Source of the DNA: a virus
Strand: one strand, 5' to 3'
Length of the DNA: 46,657 nt
Virus genome (UHGV): UHGV-0180138
In this document: positions 15,685 to 38,218 of the stretch, piece after piece
Numbering within the stretch: the stretch's first letter is position 1
Layout: each line of letters starts with the position of its first letter
Position numbers and translations under genes: made by a program
Notes under the pieces: generated by a model
What the model was told of the DNA's origin: nothing
The model's input: only the letters and a program-made list of their open reading frames with translations
The model's database searches: none

Positions 15685-15890
15685 TGTATGTTCGATGCAC
15701 TGAATCAAAAACATTATGCTTTGAGGTTGGCGGAATATATACCGTAGATCACCTGACTGGTGATGAAAATAACATCCAATACATTAAAGACGATCACGGC
15801 GACGCGTGGCGCTATTGGGATTGTTACGCACGGGGACACGTTACCAGTCATTTCGGTACGGAAGCGATCGCGCGTTTTGTTAAATGGTAA
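15684..15890 (+). CDS. small protein, member 1 of four-gene tandem paralog family
   Basis: VRCTESKTLCFEVGGIYT...DDHGDAWRYW; shared pattern C-x-ES-K-x-x-F-x-x-G-x-Y ... D-x-x-G-x-x-W. Confidence 0.5.
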   Translation: MYVRCTESKTLCFEVGGIYTVDHLTGDENNIQYIKDDHGDAWRYWDCYARGHVTSHFGTEAIARFVKW

Positions 15891-15899
15891 GGGGTAAGC

Positions 15900-16151
15900 A
15901 TGAAGCATTTATATTTTGAGGTATTGCATACGCGCGACCGCAATATTTTTGAAGAAGGTAAGATCTATTGCGGCGTTCAACTACACGGCGCACCGGGCGG
16001 TGAGGCGATGGCGATAACTGGTGATGATGATAAGGTTTATTTTGCTTATGTCACACGCTTTCCACACACTGACAAGGTTTATTATCGCATCGTGCATGAC
16101 TTCCATGGCGTAGCTGTATTTTGTGACCGCGAAGGCAGTAAACCGGAATAG
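15900..16151 (+). CDS. small protein, member 2 of tandem paralog family
   Basis: More divergent; FEEGKIYCG ... GDDDKVYFAY. Confidence 0.45.
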   Translation: MKHLYFEVLHTRDRNIFEEGKIYCGVQLHGAPGGEAMAITGDDDKVYFAYVTRFPHTDKVYYRIVHDFHGVAVFCDREGSKPE

Positions 16152-31362: not shown

Positions 31363-32040
31363 ATGATCCATGTTCGAACGGGACAATTTGCTGCTGTGGT
31401 AGACGGAAGGCGGTACGTGTTTAATCCATGCTTCGCTGCGATAGCTAAGATCGGTAGTGACAGCGAACTGGTCGAATACTTCGCAACCATACACGGTGGC
31501 AAATATCCATCACGATTGCCAGCAGATCCAGGCCTACGCAATCGCATTCTGGCGCGGTGTTATGGTGAAATAGTTCAGACATCAATGCACATCCTGAAAT
31601 GTTGCTCAGACGACGAAATAGGCCCGTTATTGGGTGAGTGTAGTTTTACCCCTTCAGGCAAGTTGCGACTAAAACCAGGCTTGATGCCTACTGATGACGT
31701 TATCACGCTGGCGCAGCATTGCATGTACCACGGCTTAATCGGTGACGGGCCGGAAGAAGAGTCCGGAGAAATCCCGGAAGGGGAATATAAGCCGACTTTT
31801 AACGTCCTTGAATTCGTCTATTCTGCCGTTGCTCACCTGGGCTTGTCAGAATCGGAAGCATGGAATATGACAATGACCGGATATAGGGCCGCTGTACGCG
31901 CTAAAACGCCGCCAGACGAAAGAAACGAGAGAAGCAAGCCAAACATTCACATAAATAAACGTGCTTATGACGAGCAAATGGAGGCCGCTAAAAAGGCACT
32001 AGAAAGAATAAAAAATCGTGAGCAAGAAAAAGCCCGGTAG
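31363..32040 (+). CDS. tail assembly chaperone candidate
   Basis: 225-aa ORF between major tail gene and tape measure; no slippery site identified. Confidence 0.4.
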   Translation: MIHVRTGQFAAVVDGRRYVFNPCFAAIAKIGSDSELVEYFATIHGGKYPSRLPADPGLRNRILARCYGEIVQTSMHILKCCSDDEIGPLLGECSFTPSGKLRLKPGLMPTDDVITLAQHCMYHGLIGDGPEEESGEIPEGEYKPTFNVLEFVYSAVAHLGLSESEAWNMTMTGYRAAVRAKTPPDERNERSKPNIHINKRAYDEQMEAAKKALERIKNREQEKAR

Positions 32041-32055
32041 ATCCGGGCGTTTTGC
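32032..32055. terminator. bidirectional terminator hairpin
   Basis: GCCCGG-tagat-CCGGGC with T-run on plus strand and T-rich flank on minus strand; separates convergent genes. Confidence 0.5.
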
Positions 32056-32429
32056 TAATTGAAATCTTTAATTGCTGTACCTGGTGAACTGTGTGTGATT
32101 GTATTGTATACAGACTTTGCCTTACTGCGATCTTTCCATTCTTTTAGGATGCAGTTATCAAACTTTGCGATAACCCTTGAAGGGGATAATTCTTCAACAT
32201 CCATGTAAGTAAATCCTATCGTGCTGGTTACTGAATACCATACGTGATAACTATAATTACCGTCATGCTCGATTCTTTGTGGTTCCCCCATTATTTTATT
32301 CACTTGCTCACAAGTCATTCCAACTTGCAATTTTTTATCAGCTAACTTAACGAAATCAGTTGATCTTGCGCACCCTGTAAGAGCTAAAGCCATAACACCA
32401 ATGAGAACCGCTTTGATTATGTTTTTCAT
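32055..32429 (-). CDS. lipoprotein with BamE/SmpA-OmlA-like domain
   Basis: Signal peptide plus lipobox LTGC; LQVGMTCEQVNKIMGEPQRIE resembles BamE-family motif. Confidence 0.55.
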   Translation of the reverse strand: MKNIIKAVLIGVMALALTGCARSTDFVKLADKKLQVGMTCEQVNKIMGEPQRIEHDGNYSYHVWYSVTSTIGFTYMDVEELSPSRVIAKFDNCILKEWKDRSKAKSVYNTITHSSPGTAIKDFN

Positions 32430-32439
32430 GATTTACCCC

Positions 32440-33099
32440 TTAATTCCAGTTGCAAGCGTTTTTCACTTTGTCGATGTGGTTATAAAGACCATCAATGTTA
32501 AACACCGCTTTCTCAATGTCGCCAGCTTCCGGCACTACTTCAATGATGAATTGTTTTTCGTTAACCATTTTTTTAATCATTGGGATGGCTTTTTTGCCGT
32601 CCCATAATCCAAGAGCTTTATAATTAGTTGACCGTCCCCACTCAGTAGCTACAGCTTTGTGAACGCCGATCCGGTAGTTAATATAAGTAGTGTCCCCGGC
32701 GTCAGTTACATGGTGTGACCATGCTACGAACATTTTTGTTTTATTACCCTGGCAAGCGATTGTTAATACCGGTTTATTCTTATCCTGTGCCTTCAGTGTC
32801 GGGAAAGCATCAAGACTTCCGCTGAATTGTTCTGCTTTCACAAAAAGGAATACGTTTTTTGCGTCCTGCATATCATCTTTTCTTTCAACTACAAGCCACT
32901 GTTTACCAGCATTTTCTTTTTCTAACTGTGCATCGTATGCGGCTTGTTTTGCTTGTTGTTCTGCAAGCCATTTAGCATTTTTCTCTGCTAATGCTTGTTG
33001 TTCTTGATTGGTCACTATAGGCGCTTTTTCATTATCCTCATTGCAACCAACCAGACCCAATACCGCCGCAATCATTGCCACTTTTGCTAACCGTTTCAT
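32440..33099 (-). CDS. lipoprotein (219 aa)
   Basis: Signal peptide plus lipobox LVGC; Gln/Ala/Lys-rich linker then globular domain. Confidence 0.6.
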   Translation of the reverse strand: MKRLAKVAMIAAVLGLVGCNEDNEKAPIVTNQEQQALAEKNAKWLAEQQAKQAAYDAQLEKENAGKQWLVVERKDDMQDAKNVFLFVKAEQFSGSLDAFPTLKAQDKNKPVLTIACQGNKTKMFVAWSHHVTDAGDTTYINYRIGVHKAVATEWGRSTNYKALGLWDGKKAIPMIKKMVNEKQFIIEVVPEAGDIEKAVFNIDGLYNHIDKVKNACNWN

Positions 33100-33146
33100 A
33101 ACCCACCACGCTAACTTGATTTACTGACCTTTCCCTTTGGCTTCCT

Positions 33147-33186
33147 TATACAAAATGGAGTCGTTGAAGTAAAGCCATTTTGTATA
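33147..33186. promoter_or_regulatory. perfect inverted repeat of conserved motif: TATACAAAATGG (33147-33158) / CCATTTTGTATA (33175-33186), 16-bp spacer
   Basis: Direct reading; between leftward lipoprotein genes and rightward tape measure gene. Confidence 0.55.
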
Positions 33187-33226
33187 AAATAGATACACAG
33201 ATCACATTTTTGCATGAGGTTAAATC

Positions 33227-35572
33227 ATGGCTACCAGTGTAGGTACAATTTATTACGAAGTTGATGCAAAAACTGGTCAACTTCTCGTTGCACAACGACA
33301 GGCAGACCAGGCCTTTGACCGTATAGAGCGCGGCGCAAAACAGGCTGACCGCCAGGTAAACACCCTGAAAACATCCATCAAGGCACTGACCAGGGTTATC
33401 CATTTGCTAATTGCTGCGGAGGCTGTGCGCCAATTTATGGATATGGCGGAGCAAGCAAAAATGCTTCGCGTAAAAATCAAAATGCTTACGGGCGATGCGG
33501 AGTCCGCCGGACGGGTTTTCGACGGCCTGAAAGCAATATCCAGGGAAACGGGGCAGAGCCTGAAGGATACTGGCGAACTATGGCAGGGCCTGGCTATCTC
33601 ACTGAAGAACACGTCAGCTACGGAAGGGCAATTGCTTAACCTGGTTGGCACTATTCAGAAAATGGGGGCGTTAGGCGGCGCATCAGCGGAACAGATGTCT
33701 AACTCTATGCGCCAGTTCCGCCAGTCTATAGACGGCGGCGTGCTGCGTGCTGAAGAATTTAACAGCCTACTTGAAAACACCCCGACCATCGTACAAACAA
33801 TGGCCCGCCATATGGGATTATCAATGGGCCAGTTCCGCGCTGAAATGCTGGACGGCAAGATCACGGCAGAAAGGATGGTTAACGCAATCCAGGCGGCTAC
33901 GCAGGAAACAAACGAGCAGTTCGCGCAGTTGCCTCGCACATCCGGTATGGCTATCAATGAGCTTAAAGTCGAAATCATGGGCCTTGTTGAGCAGCTTGAT
34001 GATCTTTTCGGCGTATCAGATGGCGTAGTCTCAGCTATCGACTTGATCACAAAAGGCGTTAAGGGGTTAGGTGAGGGCGCTAAATTCGCTAAAACCTGCT
34101 TCGATACACTCAAAACGGCTGGTGGCGAATTCATCGACATGTTTGATGATGTGGCTGTGAAGGCTGGCGAGGTGGCAGAGAAGATCATCGCAATGGTGAC
34201 GCCAATCAAGGCGCTTATGGACGCTTATAAATGGATGAAGGAGGTTGTAGATAAGCGCAAGGAAGAACTAAATAACAATCCTACAAAAATGTTCGGACCG
34301 TTAGTAGGCCAGGTGATGACGCTTAAAAATGATCTCGATGCAGTTCGCAAGAAAGGTGAGGAAGCGAAAGAAGCGTTAACTGCACCAGATGACGGAACTA
34401 TTACCGGATTCGATAAGCCAGTGGACAAGCCTAAAAAGGGTAAGAAAACTGGCAGCAAGAAAAGCAAAGAGGATACGCTTGGTGACAAAGGCATAAGCGT
34501 TTCCGACATGTACAACAGAGACGCCGCCGCCATGCGCAAAGCGTTAGAGAACGGAAAAGCCATTGATGCTGCGTTCGCCCAGGGAAAAATAACCCTGCTT
34601 GAGTACCGCGCCGCTCAAAAGGGGATTGGCAAGGAACTGAAGGAAGAATTAGCACAGATTCCGGTAGATGAATTGCGTGATAAATGGTCGCAAATAGTTA
34701 GCCCGATGGACCAGCTAAAAGGCGAAGTTAACCCCATCCAGCAGGCACAAAATGAATGGGCCGTCCGTAAGCAAATGCTTATCGACCTGGGCGCTACCGA
34801 AGCGCAACAGAAACAGGAATTGTTAGCCTATGAGCAGCAGATCCGCGATCTGAAATGGGAGCAATGGCAGGCGCAAAGCCAGACAAACGGCCTGATCGGT
34901 GATTGCGTTAATGGCCTTAAAGGTGGTATGAGCAATGCGCTTGTTGGCCTGTTAAACGGCACTCAATCATTGAGTGATGTTTTTGCTAACTTAGGCAGCA
35001 ATATACTTGGGAATATCGGTAACAGACTTTCGGACATAGCTGCCAACTGGATAGCAGATCAAATCATGATGGAGACACAAAGCAAAGCCACGCAGGCCAG
35101 CACAACGGCAAGCGCGGTTGCCGCTCAGGGAAGCATTGCGGCGGCGGCGGCCCCAGCCGCGGCGGCAACTGCGGCATCAACTGGCGGCAGCTGGGCGGCG
35201 GCTGGTTCGGCGGCACTTACCGCGATCATGTCGCTGGCTACGTCAATTTTTGGTGGCGGGCGTTATAATGGTGGTTCGGTTAACGGTGGTAGCCTGTATC
35301 GCGTAGGGGAACACGGTAAGCCGGAATTATTCCAGACTAATAACGGTCGTCAGTATATGATACCTGGCGAAAATGGCAGAGTAATTCCTAATCGTGACAT
35401 TGGCGGCGGCGGTGGCATCAACATGCCAGTGACCATCAACGTCCAGACCACGAACGGATTCAGCGACGATGACAGCCGCAGACTTGAGCAGACGATGGAA
35501 CGTGTAGCTATGAAGATGATAACAAGGGAATCTCAAAGACCGGGCGGAATGTTGCAACCGCGCCGCAAATAA
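33227..35572 (+). CDS. tail tape measure protein
   Basis: 781 aa, largely alpha-helical with Gly/Ala-rich C-terminal part; precedes M-L-K-I-J block; SD GAGG. Confidence 0.85.
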   Translation: MATSVGTIYYEVDAKTGQLLVAQRQADQAFDRIERGAKQADRQVNTLKTSIKALTRVIHLLIAAEAVRQFMDMAEQAKMLRVKIKMLTGDAESAGRVFDGLKAISRETGQSLKDTGELWQGLAISLKNTSATEGQLLNLVGTIQKMGALGGASAEQMSNSMRQFRQSIDGGVLRAEEFNSLLENTPTIVQTMARHMGLSMGQFRAEMLDGKITAERMVNAIQAATQETNEQFAQLPRTSGMAINELKVEIMGLVEQLDDLFGVSDGVVSAIDLITKGVKGLGEGAKFAKTCFDTLKTAGGEFIDMFDDVAVKAGEVAEKIIAMVTPIKALMDAYKWMKEVVDKRKEELNNNPTKMFGPLVGQVMTLKNDLDAVRKKGEEAKEALTAPDDGTITGFDKPVDKPKKGKKTGSKKSKEDTLGDKGISVSDMYNRDAAAMRKALENGKAIDAAFAQGKITLLEYRAAQKGIGKELKEELAQIPVDELRDKWSQIVSPMDQLKGEVNPIQQAQNEWAVRKQMLIDLGATEAQQKQELLAYEQQIRDLKWEQWQAQSQTNGLIGDCVNGLKGGMSNALVGLLNGTQSLSDVFANLGSNILGNIGNRLSDIAANWIADQIMMETQSKATQASTTASAVAAQGSIAAAAAPAAAATAASTGGSWAAAGSAALTAIMSLATSIFGGGRYNGGSVNGGSLYRVGEHGKPELFQTNNGRQYMIPGENGRVIPNRDIGGGGGINMPVTINVQTTNGFSDDDSRRLEQTMERVAMKMITRESQRPGGMLQPRRK

Positions 35573-35577
35573 CACTA

Positions 35578-35604
35578 AGGCCGCTTATAGCGGCCTTTAT
35601 TTTA
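35578..35604 (+). terminator. rho-independent terminator after tape measure gene
   Basis: AGGCCGC-ttata-GCGGCCT followed by TTATTTT. Confidence 0.65.
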
Positions 35605-35889
35605 CATGGTGAGAATATAAATCAAACAGCACAGGAATACAGGTGCGGCGAAGTCGCAAACGCTAGCCATATTCCATGCTTTAGGTAAGAATCCGCCATA
35701 CCACGGCATTCTTTCCCGTTTTCCACCGCAAAATTCCGCTATGTAACGATATTCAGCCTGCGTGTGTTCCCGTGCAAAAAAGAATGTACATCCAATCAGG
35801 CCGCCAGTGAGATAATCACCAGTAAGCAGGCCGATAACAACCTGCATAGCCGCCGCAGCAAGTGCGTGACCAATAACGGTTAAATCCAT
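35602..35889 (-). CDS. small membrane protein
   Basis: 95 aa, three hydrophobic segments; last gene of leftward cassette. Confidence 0.5.
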   Translation of the reverse strand: MDLTVIGHALAAAAMQVVIGLLTGDYLTGGLIGCTFFFAREHTQAEYRYIAEFCGGKRERMPWYGGFLPKAWNMASVCDFAAPVFLCCLIYILTM

Positions 35890-35891
35890 AG

Positions 35892-36077
35892 TTAATCCCC
35901 CTGATCGTTCTCAAATGTGCCATCTACAAATTTTTGAAGCCCGGCGATAAGTTGTGTAGCCTGCGATTTTTCAATTACGATGGTGTCACTCCCCATAAGT
36001 TCGGTTATCCACAGCCGGTCATTCTCATCAAGATCTAACCTAACTCCGTAACATAACTCTGTTTCGTCAATAATCAT
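35892..36077 (-). CDS. small acidic protein
   Basis: 61-aa ORF in leftward cassette. Confidence 0.45.
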   Translation of the reverse strand: MIIDETELCYGVRLDLDENDRLWITELMGSDTIVIEKSQATQLIAGLQKFVDGTFENDQGD

Positions 36078-36186
36078 TTTTCCCCCTATAATCTTCCGTT
36101 ACGTGCGATGTACCCCCTGCCGAACATCACTAGCCAGATGTTCCAGATCTCACGCCAGGTATATTTCTCATCCTCCATACCCCACC

Positions 36187-36441
36187 TCACTTATGGCAAC
36201 CGCGCACGCCAGATAATTCATTAAATTTGTGATGCTCGACGATTACCCATGCTTTCAAGTCTTGGCTATAAACACGCCAATCTAAATTGGCGCGGAAGGC
36301 GTAGCCGTAGCCGTCCTTTAATTTTTTGGGTGCAACATCTTTGTTTAAAAACGCGTTCAGAAGTTCTTTTGCTTTTTTGATTACGTGTCCAGGTGCGTTT
36401 TTCTGTGCTTTCAGGTTTTTGTCAATCGCTACCAGTTTCAT
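36187..36441 (-). CDS. RelE/YoeB/ParE-superfamily toxin-like protein (candidate)
   Basis: 84 aa; pattern VIKKAKELLNAFLNKD...KKLKDGYGYAFRANLDWRVYSQDLKAWVIVEHHK resembles RelE/ParE fold (helices then strand with W/Y-R-V-Y and V-I-V-x-x-H); SD GGGGTGAG; motif-level only. Confidence 0.35.
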   Translation of the reverse strand: MKLVAIDKNLKAQKNAPGHVIKKAKELLNAFLNKDVAPKKLKDGYGYAFRANLDWRVYSQDLKAWVIVEHHKFNELSGVRGCHK

Positions 36442-36458
36442 AACTCACCCCATCATCC

Positions 36459-36614
36459 TTAGTTAAGTTCCTTCAGGAAGAAGTCCCGGTATTCATCTTC
36501 TTTCGCATTCATCATGAATTGACCGTATTTGAATGCGTCGTCGAAACCCTTAACGATTGCTATTTCCACTTGTTCGAATGCGTTGTTTAGCATTACCACT
36601 ACATAGCGTTTCAT
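36459..36614 (-). CDS. small protein, possible partner of downstream toxin-like gene
   Basis: Start set at ATG 36614 after strong SD AAGGAGG (track ORF extends to 36689); 51 aa. Confidence 0.45.
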   Translation of the reverse strand: MKRYVVVMLNNAFEQVEIAIVKGFDDAFKYGQFMMNAKEDEYRDFFLKELN

Positions 36615-36684
36615 TTTGGGCCTCCTTCGTTGGTACTGCTTTTCTTCTTGCTTTCTGTATACATCTTGTTTAGTGCCATGTGAA

Positions 36685-36699
36685 GCCATTTTGTAAACT
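36685..36699 (-). promoter_or_regulatory. conserved motif AGTTTACAAAATGGC (minus orientation) at head of leftward cassette
   Basis: Reverse complement of GCCATTTTGTAAACT; oriented with the leftward genes. Confidence 0.5.
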
Positions 36700-37686: not shown

Positions 37687-38049
37687 CTATTTATCGAAGC
37701 AGCCTAAGTTATCAATACAGAAGTCTTTAGCGGCTTTTTCGTATTCCTGTTTTGCTTTCGGATCGTCTGCCGGGAAACCTTTCGCGTGTATTTCACCAGG
37801 GCAAGACTGGTCCATAGAATCTGCATAATAAGCAGTGAAGCTACTATTAATATCTTTCGGGTTCATAGCGTTGTCCTCGTCTGGTTCGTCGTCTGGTATT
37901 TCTATCGGGTTAACTGTAAAGTCACATGCTCTGTTCCAGCACCGGAGAATCTCAAGTCCTTCTCCGCGTGCATTTTCATACGTTTCGAATAACCCCAGGT
38001 ATTCCCATTCTTGCCTATCAGTCCAAACATCTAAGCGCCATTTTCTCAT
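37687..38049 (-). CDS. hypothetical acidic protein
   Basis: Start set at ATG 38049 after SD GGTGGG (track ORF extends to 38103). Confidence 0.45.
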   Translation of the reverse strand: MRKWRLDVWTDRQEWEYLGLFETYENARGEGLEILRCWNRACDFTVNPIEIPDDEPDEDNAMNPKDINSSFTAYYADSMDQSCPGEIHAKGFPADDPKAKQEYEKAAKDFCIDNLGCFDK

Positions 38050-38218
38050 TTCGCCCACCATTGAATTTAATAGGTTTAATCCGGTAGCCCATGACTCGAT
38101 CATCTTTTTCTGATAGGTCTAAGGCCGTATCTAATGCGTCGCCAGGATTATCGAATTCAGCCTCGACATCACGCCCATTACTCATAAATAAGGTGAGTAT
38201 CCATAACTTATCATTCAT
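38018..38218 (-). CDS. hypothetical small protein
   Basis: 66-aa ORF, first gene of leftward cassette. Confidence 0.45.
   Translation of the reverse strand: MNDKLWILTLFMSNGRDVEAEFDNPGDALDTALDLSEKDDRVMGYRIKPIKFNGGRNEKMALRCLD

Follow-up and report, generated by a model that had tools for sequence, protein, structure and literature searches.

Llp of phage T5 is a lipoprotein encoded by the phage. Another such lipoprotein is Cor of phages phi80, N15 and HK022 (PMC3594210). Among the mEpimmI coliphages, the lipoproteins Lpp021 and Lpp010 exclude phages when expressed (PMC11893012). HK97 gp15, characterized by Cumby et al. (2012), is made by the prophage and stops incoming DNA while leaving the receptor unmasked, an effect that depends on the incoming tail (PMC3594210). 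Morons were defined by Juhala et al. (2000) as extra DNA between genes that adjoin each other in related phages, with deviant base composition, its own promoter and terminator, and expression from the prophage (PMC3594210). The protein SDIC4B, whose fold is VasI-like, provides 10- to 200-fold protection against phages on its own (bioRxiv 10.1101/2024.01.28.577318), and a VasI-domain gene is ORF1 of the Citrobacter rodentium phage phiSM (PMC6456863).

The window analyzed here, the entire 46,657-nucleotide stretch UHGV-0180138, derives from a temperate coliphage of the mEpimmI (mEp021-like) group. Between two of its tail genes lies a unit of two lipoprotein genes that is a real feature and probably a moron.

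Organization and boundaries of the cassette

An earlier note on this DNA, made from the sequence alone, had placed two leftward genes between the tail chaperone and tape measure genes. Both ORFs are present on the minus strand, antisense to the tail genes, and form a self-contained insert between the DUF6246 and tape measure genes, with the following features (positions in the window):

31363–32040, plus strand: left flank, DUF6246 backbone gene in the tail-assembly-chaperone position (Pfam DUF6246, E 6e-54; phrog_791)
32032–32048, both strands: bidirectional intrinsic terminator at the left cargo boundary, stem-loop GCCCGG-TAGAT-CCGGGC, from a terminator scan
32055–32429, minus strand: second gene, precursor of a 124-aa lipoprotein, BamE/OsmE/BLIP-like
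32430–32439, minus strand: intergenic spacer of 10 nt, TAA-GGGGTAAATC-ATG, read directly from the sequence
32440–33099, minus strand: promoter-proximal gene, precursor of a 219-aa lipoprotein, VasI-like
33145–33173, minus strand: candidate sigma-70 promoter of the operon, assigned by eye: TTTACT (33173–33168), 17 nt, TATAAG (33150–33145)
33147–33186, no strand: palindromic double motif at the right cargo boundary, between the lipoprotein operon and the divergent tape measure gene
33227–35572, plus strand: right flank, tape measure backbone gene (Pfam TMP_3, E 6.7e-50; phrog_1538)

The description of the upstream gene as a tail chaperone is one of position; its family is DUF6246, with Phage_TAC_11 reached only at E 0.05. 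The two lipoprotein genes are only 10 nt apart and therefore form one operon; the spacer contains a GGGG Shine-Dalgarno-like run 6 nt upstream of the second ATG. Across the insert, G+C is 0.38–0.41 as against about 0.50 in the flanks, a fall of about 10 points. An ORF on the plus strand (32690–33007), contained within the VasI-like gene, was dismissed as an antisense artefact.

Both boundaries proposed in the earlier note were borne out. The terminator scores as a stem-loop in both directions, the minus strand offering the better T-run (TTTTTCTT); the DUF6246 stop codon sits in its loop, the leftward operon ends at the same hairpin, and the hairpin is kept in mEp013, mEp554, MagusPhagus and mEp010 regardless of cargo. 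At the right boundary, the "inverted conserved motif" is a perfect 12-bp palindrome, TATACAAAATGG-N16-CCATTTTGTATA (0 matches in 100 shuffles), and amounts to two copies of a motif spread across the phage, [T/A][T/A]TACAAAATGG, for which there are 12 occurrences at no more than one mismatch against 1.8 expected. This boundary, too, is kept in relatives with other cargo. Two readings of the motif were rejected: as an RNA hairpin or terminator, given that most copies are single and followed by no T-run, and as a −35 element, given that no −10 element lies at the right distance.

The motif sits 1–5 nt upstream of −35-like hexamers. In the candidate promoter of the lipoprotein operon, 9 of 12 positions match the sigma-70 pattern; a stricter promoter scan did not call the site, and the same arrangement is kept ahead of other cargo genes in the slot. 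The promoter-adjacent motif also precedes the repressor gene and early, lysis and tail genes, and the operon could be a lytic-phase unit rather than one expressed from the prophage.

Lipoprotein signal peptides of both products

The earlier note had read lipoboxes LVGC and LTGC in the two products, and signal-peptide analysis upheld both. The signal peptide of the 219-aa protein is MKRLAKVAMIAAVLGLVG|C, with the lipobox cysteine at position 19 and Asn at +2, and that of the 124-aa protein is MKNIIKAVLIGVMALALTG|C, with the cysteine at position 20 and Ala at +2. Each has a positive n-region, a hydrophobic h-region and a lipobox of the form [LVI][ASTVI][GAS]C, laid out as MKRLAK-VAMIAAVLG-LVGC in the larger protein and MKNIIK-AVLIGVMALA-LTGC in the smaller. 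A scan of the 46.6-kb window that took in every ORF of 40 aa or longer found lipobox signal peptides in only three genes, the two of the cassette and the Rz1-type o-spanin gene at 19387–19581. The Leu, Gly and Cys positions of the lipobox are invariant among homologues of 54–98% identity, and the mature part of each lipoprotein holds two invariant cysteines. Because neither protein has Asp at +2, Lol-dependent sorting is predicted for both, and by the +2 rule both would reside in the outer membrane.

Domain content of the two lipoproteins

The 219-aa protein contains a VasI/TagO domain (Pfam PF11319, E 1.4e-15, 57.9 bits against a gathering threshold of 26.5), an identity that does not appear in the earlier note. 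After the lipobox Cys19, some 10 disordered residues link to a long helix (31–63), which is followed by a VasI/IalB-like beta-sandwich (68–219) in which Cys116 and Cys216 are invariant. The residues shared invariantly with canonical VasI are W68, C116, T121, R143, G164-L165-W166, G168, P173, P190, F200, C216 and W218. The phage proteins form a narrow clade of their own, with only 5 of 1,875 representative hits at E 1e-30 or better.

For the 124-aa protein, the BamE/SmpA-OmlA-like motif noted earlier is real (residues 32–51, with fold-level support) but falls short of the Pfam threshold (E 5e-4, 20.2 bits against 23.2); the same weak match is common to 8 of the 9 members of the family, which is the phage-restricted phrog_18614. 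Its score against the OsmE model NF008423 is 16.9, below the cut-off of 65. The predicted fold appears to be a BamE/OsmE/BLIP-like alpha-beta domain (alpha-alpha-beta-beta-beta in those proteins), although the structural alignments are only 14–19% identical and one of five model predictions was confident. The invariant cysteines here are Cys40 and Cys93. A structure search of BFVD with the model returned weak matches only (TM about 0.37), and a PDB search with the family profile gave only chance matches to glycerol kinase.

Neither protein, searched singly, matched a PDB sequence, and neither matched a defence family in PADLOC-DB 2.0.0 at E 0.1 or better, a release that dates from 2023 and precedes SDIC4.

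A slot for exchangeable cargo

Two of the properties by which morons are defined are evident: in comparison with mEp013, mEp554, mEp010, mEp021, MagusPhagus and prophages, the insert is extra DNA, with constant boundaries and varying content, and relative to its flanks its base composition deviates through the dip in G+C. In one locus (L006), the DUF6246 and tape measure genes are directly adjacent. Among relatives, the cassette genes are found together, singly or with other partners. Every alternative cargo is leftward and encodes a secreted or membrane protein, and the promoter-proximal cargo genes have their first 10–15 signal-peptide codons in common. That the slot is swappable across the phage group is an observation additional to the account in the earlier note.

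The cassette is rare, being present in 16 of 5,426 E. coli genomes, with no tie to pathotype in the match list; its carriers include clinical isolates from cerebrospinal fluid (CSF) and STEC strains. Unrelated temperate phages repeatedly carry VasI-domain genes among their accessory cargo. In Brucella phage BiPBO1, such a gene comes immediately after that for the repressor; in P2-family phages, it occupies the ogr-int accessory region, adjoining a gene for a zinc-ribbon membrane protein; and in an alphaproteobacterial prophage, it is antisense in the early region.

Proposed role and alternatives

Our preferred reading, to which we assign a probability of roughly 0.45, is that the cassette is a two-gene moron that changes the envelope of the lysogen such that incoming phages fail, by a route other than masking of the phage's own receptor. 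The cassette would be horizontally acquired, separately transcribed cargo of the chaperone/tape-measure slot, transcribed leftward from its own promoter beside the palindromic motif and ended by the bidirectional terminator. Both products would leave the cytoplasm through Sec and receive their lipid on the lipobox cysteine, and Lol would then deliver them to the outer membrane, on its inner leaflet, with one disulfide probable in each mature domain. There, the 219-aa product would hold out a beta-sandwich of the VasI/IalB type on its helical stalk, and the 124-aa product a protein-binding domain of the BamE/OsmE/BLIP type. The lipoproteins may bind a periplasmic or outer-membrane component, or else the tail tip or tape measure of an entering phage, and the outcome would be superinfection exclusion or defence at the level of the envelope. 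Superinfection exclusion, which the earlier note offered as a reasonable guess by analogy with other phages, stays plausible; it has indirect support because Lpp lipoproteins of the same group exclude phages and a protein with the VasI fold defends against them. Location in the outer membrane, prophage expression, any anti-phage effect and the target of the cassette are what we infer.

Should the cassette exclude phages, this would be the first function for a family of about 1,900 representative clusters, which genome pipelines label "T6SS-associated TagO/VasI" without a known role, and one that could be tested simply by plating phages on E. coli K-12. An HK97-type moron slot would then serve, in an unrelated gut-prevalent phage group, as a swap site for exported proteins with one common leader, a convenient natural collection in which to look for phage defences that act at the envelope. 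A broader version of this proposal, which we consider doubtful, holds that the VasI domain is mainly a periplasmic anti-phage module carried as prophage-expressed cargo by several temperate lineages, and that the slot is an envelope-defence cassette site. Under that version, the mEpimmI slot would plug various mature domains in behind a conserved "export leader" of promoter, ribosome-binding site and signal peptide, and the slot proteins would act on the periplasmic passage of incoming tails, not on receptors.

The cassette might instead encode a lysogenic-conversion factor unrelated to phages, comparable to Bor, Lom or Ipe, that alters the physiology of the envelope; tolerance of osmotic or envelope stress, vesiculation, resistance to serum and interaction with the host are examples of what it might affect. 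The OsmE/BamE-like fold of the smaller protein is in line with such a role, as is the protein that the VasI domain matches best in structure, the invasion-associated protein B of Bartonella, but these fold matches are distant (8–19% identity). Lysogens of mEp021 are reported to be haemolytic by virtue of the small phage protein Ipe (PMC11893012; PMC6379469), and the CSF and STEC carriers would suit a conversion factor; against this stand the rarity of the cassette and the lack of a pathotype link in the match list. Moreover, the unrelated exported proteins in the same slot of relatives fit a conflict function with fast turnover better, and we regard conversion as unlikely.

Still less probable is masking of the Cor/Llp type, to which the earlier note had appealed, whereby one or both lipoproteins would bind the outer-membrane receptor of the phage and so prevent it from adsorbing or ejecting its DNA; this could happen in lysogens, or at a late stage of infection as a way to shield progeny from debris. 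The tail module does encode these predicted outer-membrane lipoproteins, and the Lpp types of the group track the receptor, type A going with OmpA users and type C with LamB users (PMC11893012). No leftward lipobox ORF follows J in the window, so the cassette could fill the role of the Lpp gene that is missing downstream of J. However, the VasI-like gene is 95–99% identical in 15 E. coli prophages, whereas the last ~540 nt of the J gene of the window match none of the 5,426 genomes, the last ~140 J residues of the window bear no relation to those of prophage N25, and the VasI-carrying prophages show at least four patterns of match to J in its 3′ part. The cassette is thus about 99% conserved in prophages with unrelated receptor-binding J C-termini, which speaks against masking of the phage's own receptor; it does not co-vary with the receptor-binding domain of J, and the simplest model of exclusion is thereby removed. 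The mature domains are without similarity to Lpp010 or Lpp021, with BLASTP aligning the signal peptides only (the comparison covered Lpp types A and C), and are likewise unrelated to Cor or Llp. Finally, mEp013 carries the 124-aa gene together with a type-C Lpp, and prophage N25 carries, besides the cassette, a gene after J for another small secreted protein; the cassette is therefore not simply the group's replacement for Lpp.

We also give little credence to the proposal that the VasI-like lipoprotein, possibly assisted by the BamE-like one, acts on a host type VI secretion system (T6SS) as a modulator or, as an immunity or accessory factor borne by the prophage, protects the periplasm of the lysogen from T6SS effectors. 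The 219-aa protein reaches 45.8 bits against the cut-off of 124.2 for the T6SS equivalog NCBIfam TIGR03360, and its identity to non-phage relatives does not exceed about 30%. The canonical N-terminus, a type I signal peptide followed by C-x8-RLxC[YF]D, was not found in it; this motif is present in most VasI representatives, and the phage clade has the lipobox and helix instead. In every locus seen, the gene lies between siphophage tail genes and never within a T6SS cluster. In a small sample of relatives, several on contigs too short to be informative, five had readable neighbourhoods, and these lay in a prophage, in small islands or beside HTH genes, none (0 of 5) in a T6SS locus. The 124-aa model resembles BtiO no more closely than it does BamE, OsmE or BLIP, the 124-aa gene also occurs in mEp013, the record host of which is E. 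coli K-12, and even canonical VasI/TagO is listed without a known function (PMC13584744). The name "TagO" on these prophage genes should not be taken as evidence for a type VI secretion function or for virulence.

A role in tail assembly or lysis was rejected, given that the genes are missing from most relatives, that their products are exported lipoproteins and that the phage has its own Rz/Rz1 pair.

Comparison with known systems

HK97 gene 15 is the archetypal moron, and the cassette occupies the same position, between the tail assembly chaperone and tape measure genes (PMC3594210). Like the moron described there, it has deviating G+C and is probably a separate transcription unit, and like gene 15 it encodes envelope protein. 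The mechanistic class of gp15 is the one that best fits the uncoupling of the cassette from J. Gene 15, however, encodes just one protein, gp15, a small YebO-family member located in the inner membrane, whereas the cassette, in a different phage group, encodes in antisense two outer-membrane-type lipoproteins with unrelated folds.

With Lpp021, Lpp010, Cor and Llp, the cassette shares lipobox lipoproteins encoded by leftward genes within the tail region, and Lpp021 and Lpp010 come from the same phage group. The latter two are proteins of 72–82 aa, encoded just downstream of J, that track the receptor type (PMC11893012); the cassette proteins, of 124 and 219 aa, occupy another slot, do not track the J C-terminus and have unrelated mature sequences.

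For the individual proteins, the 124-aa product differs from BamE, OsmE and BLIP in an extra C-terminal tail, a part in which the confidence of the model is low. VasI/TagO (PF11319, TIGR03360) and the 219-aa protein share a homologous beta-sandwich with all family-invariant residues, including the Cys pair and GLW, but VasI/TagO is a T6SS accessory protein with a type I signal peptide and C-x8-RLxCYD, whereas the phage protein has a lipid anchor and a helical stalk and lies outside T6SS. SDIC4B, from defence islands of Serratia and Enterobacteria, resembles the 219-aa protein as a VasI-like fold outside T6SS loci in conflict-associated cargo (bioRxiv 10.1101/2024.01.28.577318), going by its authors' description of the fold. 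By their account, SDIC4B is without BLAST-level similarity to T6SS VasI, whereas the 219-aa protein matches Pfam VasI directly; and SDIC4B occurs in association with BrxR rather than in a phage tail module.

Results

Genome layout and the two lipoprotein genes

The window belongs to the mEpimmI group of temperate coliphages (mEp021-like, "Nus-dependent non-lambdoid"), which PMC11893012 describes. For the region, matches of 80-91% were obtained to the phages mEp013, mEp554, mEp515 and MagusPhagus, and of up to 96% to 34 E. coli chromosomes. A repressor gene with HTH and S24 domains (995-1642) lies at the window start and is followed by early, lysis, head and tail genes. By its location after the tail tube gene, the DUF6246 gene (31363-32040, plus strand) occupies the tail-assembly-chaperone position. 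Between it and the tape measure gene (33227-35572, plus strand), an interval hereafter called the slot, the two leftward ORFs described in the earlier note were recovered:

32055-32429, minus strand: 124-aa small lipoprotein gene, ORF confirmed
32440-33099, minus strand: 219-aa VasI-like lipoprotein gene, ORF confirmed

The lipoboxes that the note had read in the two products are borne out: both leaders are textbook (MKRLAK, hydrophobic core and LVG-C19 in the 219-aa protein; MKNIIK, core and LTG-C20 in the 124-aa protein), and homologues as distant as 54-66% identity keep every lipobox residue. When every ORF of at least 40 aa in the window was scanned, lipobox signal peptides were found in only three genes, namely these two and an Rz1-type o-spanin gene (19387-19581; lipobox LSGC) nested within an Rz-like ORF (19179-19649) located 3' of the lysozyme gene (18619-19191). 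Lipoproteins without Asp at position +2 are sorted to the outer membrane; the +2 residues are Asn (219-aa) and Ala (124-aa), so that by this rule both should go there. Each mature part has exactly two further cysteines, both invariant (C116/C216 and C40/C93, respectively), a pattern that would fit one periplasmic disulfide per lipoprotein. The genes are arranged as an operon, spaced by 10 nt with a GGGG run ahead of the second ATG, and the G+C content is 0.38-0.41 in the insert versus about 0.50 on either flank. The cassette is a genuine two-gene moron, a piece of phage cargo apparently acquired horizontally and probably transcribed on its own, for two predicted outer-membrane lipoproteins.

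Boundaries, promoter and a recurrent motif

Both bracketing elements of the earlier note, a bidirectional terminator and an inverted conserved motif, are present, the latter as a perfect palindrome:

32032-32048, scoring on both strands: terminator stem-loop, with the better T-run on the minus strand
33147-33186: 12-bp perfect palindrome with a 16-nt spacer
33173-33168 (TTTACT), 17 nt, 33150-33145 (TATAAG), minus strand: candidate sigma-70 promoter, read by eye
910, 1753, 9882, 9960 (minus), 16644, 33147, 33186 (minus), 36697 (minus), 38245 (minus), 44896: motif copies, strands as marked

The motif, AAG-[T/A][T/A]TACAAAATGG-(N)GTCATTG, heads about 10 transcription units in both orientations, matching the orientation of the downstream genes, with 12 hits at no more than one mismatch in the window versus 1.8 expected and a -35-like TTGnnn 1-5 nt beyond it. 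Units preceded by it are those of the repressor, the tape measure, a tail fibre, the lysis region and an N-like early gene, together with every leftward island in the tail module. In mEpimmI phages, it probably serves as a promoter element or as a binding site for a regulator; no description of it was found in PMC11893012. The candidate promoter directly after the minus-strand motif copy, which could plausibly drive the cassette leftward, is conserved ahead of other slot cargo; a stricter promoter scan did not call TTTACT-17-TATAAG.

Upstream of the tape measure gene is a separate region bearing the motif (33147-33226), and the DUF6246 stop codon falls within the loop of the terminator; therefore, the tail genes seem to form several transcription units or to depend on antitermination, unlike the single late operon of lambda.

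Two more leftward islands, each with the motif upstream, lie between tail genes:

35602-36689, minus strand: island after the tape measure gene
37687-38103, minus strand: island after a minor tail gene

In the former, a ParE-like toxin-domain protein (36187-36441; Pfam E 1.5e-7) adjoins a small ORF (36459-36689; phrog_29810), possibly as a toxin-antitoxin pair; PADLOC gave no match. The interval between J, the gene with the receptor-binding C-terminus, and the next tail fibre gene (44809-44943) is without a leftward gene in the window; the same place holds an Lpp exclusion lipoprotein in mEp010 and mEp021 and, in prophage N25 (15729-15974 of its locus, L034), an extra small secreted protein of 81 aa that has no lipobox but a type I signal peptide. 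By this comparison, the interval is a second variable slot for exported proteins.

Exchangeable cargo behind a shared export leader

The terminator hairpin and the palindrome with the tape measure leader are kept in relatives regardless of the cargo between them, and every alternative cargo is leftward and exported.

Slot cargo in the window and related loci (L-numbers)
Window and 14 E. coli prophages: VasI-like gene and 124-aa gene
L005 and strain M1/5: VasI-like gene alone
L035/L036: 129-aa secreted helical protein and 127-aa homologue of the small lipoprotein
mEp013: 59-aa membrane protein and small lipoprotein
L037: small lipoprotein alone
mEp010, mEp021, MagusPhagus: 138-aa secreted protein
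mEp554: small membrane proteins, minus strand

At another related locus (L006), the DUF6246 gene adjoins the tape measure gene and the VasI-like gene is on the other side. For mEp554 (L002; PP180005.1, 3754-4175), the ORFs deposited in the slot, mEp554_92 and _93, are on the plus strand; two minus-strand ORFs, one of 104 aa with two predicted membrane helices and one of 35 aa, agree better with the cargo at all other loci, so that the strand given in the record is probably in error.

Promoter-proximal cargo genes have in common the RBS and the first 10-15 signal-peptide codons (MKRLAKVAM...), the first 30 nt of the CDS being 77-93% identical in DNA, with random identity beyond; cargo directly beside the motif shares the promoter and 5'UTR too. 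The signals end in a lipobox or a signal-peptidase-I site, and the mature proteins behind the common leader (the VasI-like lipoprotein, the 129-aa helical periplasmic protein and the 138-aa periplasmic protein) are mutually unrelated. Thus, the slot behaves like a conserved expression-and-export leader with swappable mature domains.

Shared-leader regions
Window: 33040-33186
L035: 5488-5653
L005: 5910-6075
L004: 2732-2897
L003: 4095-4260
L001: 4221-4386

VasI-domain proteins in temperate phages

The 219-aa protein matches Pfam VasI (PF11319; E 1.4e-15, 57.9 bits against a gathering score of 26.5) and phrog_1848, and retains all invariant residues of canonical members (W68, C116, T121, R143, GLW164-166, G168, P173, P190, F200, C216, W218). 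Canonical VasI has a type I signal peptide and a C-x8-RLxCYD motif, whereas this protein, a lipoprotein variant of the domain, has a lipid anchor together with a helix spanning about 33 residues instead. In an exhaustive profile search, only 5 of the 1,875 representative clusters with E of 1e-3 or below reached 1e-30; therefore, the phage clade is a narrow offshoot of a large family. The 124-aa protein (phrog_18614; about 10 homologue clusters, all in E. coli/Shigella phage contexts) gave sub-threshold matches to BamE, DUF7738 and OsmE and probably has a BamE/OsmE/BLIP-like fold.

By tblastn, VasI-domain genes occur in 24 of 50,697 phage records, among them P2-family phages of E. coli, Klebsiella and Citrobacter and phages of Pasteurella and Labrenzia. 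In Brucella phage BiPBO1 (L040; NC_031264.1, 2910-4327), the VasI-domain gene gp67 immediately follows the repressor gene gp68 in the same orientation. We liken this place to that of lambda rexAB-type prophage functions, and it is typical of exclusion genes expressed from prophages. In the P2-family phages 500465-2 and P88 (two records), the gene lies past ogr in an accessory region whose far end in P88 is int. There, a two-gene unit (P88, L039, NC_049391.1, 3436-4666; 500465-2, L038, 4358-5588) encodes a zinc-ribbon membrane protein of 110 aa and a secreted VasI-domain protein of 297 aa containing three C-x8-RLxCYD repeats. This unit might be equivalent to SDIC4, a two-gene defence system described in a Serratia preprint. 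SDIC4B of enterobacterial defence islands, which has a VasI-like fold, is reported in that preprint as sufficient for 10-200-fold phage protection and unlinked to T6SS loci; it is tied to the window protein by the reported fold only.

Discussion

An envelope-level anti-phage or superinfection-exclusion role, exerted other than by masking the phage's own receptor, is the reading we favor, with a probability of roughly 45%. Lysogenic conversion of a non-phage kind is unlikely. The haemolysis-inducing Ipe locus includes ORF-4.4, with alternative starts giving 83, 82, 77 or 72 aa (PMC6379469); gp81 of mEp021 (L007; MH706966.1, 17677-17895), which is the exclusion lipoprotein Lpp021, has the same length of 72 aa, and a plasmid table names the cloned gene "short lpp021" (PMC11893012). 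Ipe and Lpp021 may be the same gene, in which case a lipoprotein moron of the mEpimmI group would be expressed in lysogens and perturb the envelope.

The receptor blocking of the Cor/Llp type that the earlier note had proposed is not supported. Lpp021 and Lpp010 (82 aa), encoded just downstream of J, exclude phages when expressed, and Lpp types follow the receptor used (PMC11893012). The likeness of the cassette lipoproteins to Lpp010 and Lpp021 is confined to the signal peptide, and the lipobox scan of ORFs of at least 40 aa found no Lpp-type gene after J in the window. Across 15 complete E. coli genomes, the VasI-like gene keeps 95-99% identity, while the receptor-binding ends of J differ: the last ~540 nt of the window J gene matched 0 of 5,426 genomes, the J proteins of the window and N25 are 87% identical overall with unrelated last ~140 residues, and VasI carriers show at least four different match patterns to the 3' part of J. 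Because the cassette is uncoupled from the receptor-binding end of J, and N25 and mEp013 (which has the small lipoprotein and a type-C Lpp) carry further exported proteins, masking of the phage's own receptor appears distinctly unlikely; the data agree better with a mechanism directed against other phages or against a conserved step.

A T6SS-related role, to which the RefSeq name "type VI secretion system-associated protein TagO" would point, is similarly improbable: the score against TIGR03360 is only 45.8 bits (equivalog cut-off 124.2), and none of the five nearest relatives of the phage clade with readable neighbourhoods lies in a T6SS locus, one being in a prophage antisense to its neighbours, one in a small island beside a RhuM/Fic gene, one near a resolvase and two adjoining HTH regulators. 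Papers naming vasI do so only for a member of Vibrio T6SS clusters or for its co-expression with T6SS genes, TagO/VasI function is entered as "unknown" in a 2026 review (PMC13584744), and ORF1 of the C. rodentium prophage phiSM is listed as "T6SS VasI family protein" by annotation alone (PMC6456863). For these prophage genes, the name TagO is best regarded as an over-annotation.

Under the favored exclusion role, the conserved step could be the crossing of the periplasm by the tail tip, tape measure or DNA, as for HK97 gp15. Phage morons encoding envelope proteins are already known, and the cassette belongs to that kind; less ordinary, and worth experiment, are the recurrence of VasI-domain cargo across temperate phages and a swap site with a shared export leader. 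HK97 gene 15, the first element called a moron, occupies the same genomic position as the cassette, and its prophage-expressed product blocks DNA entry (PMC3594210).
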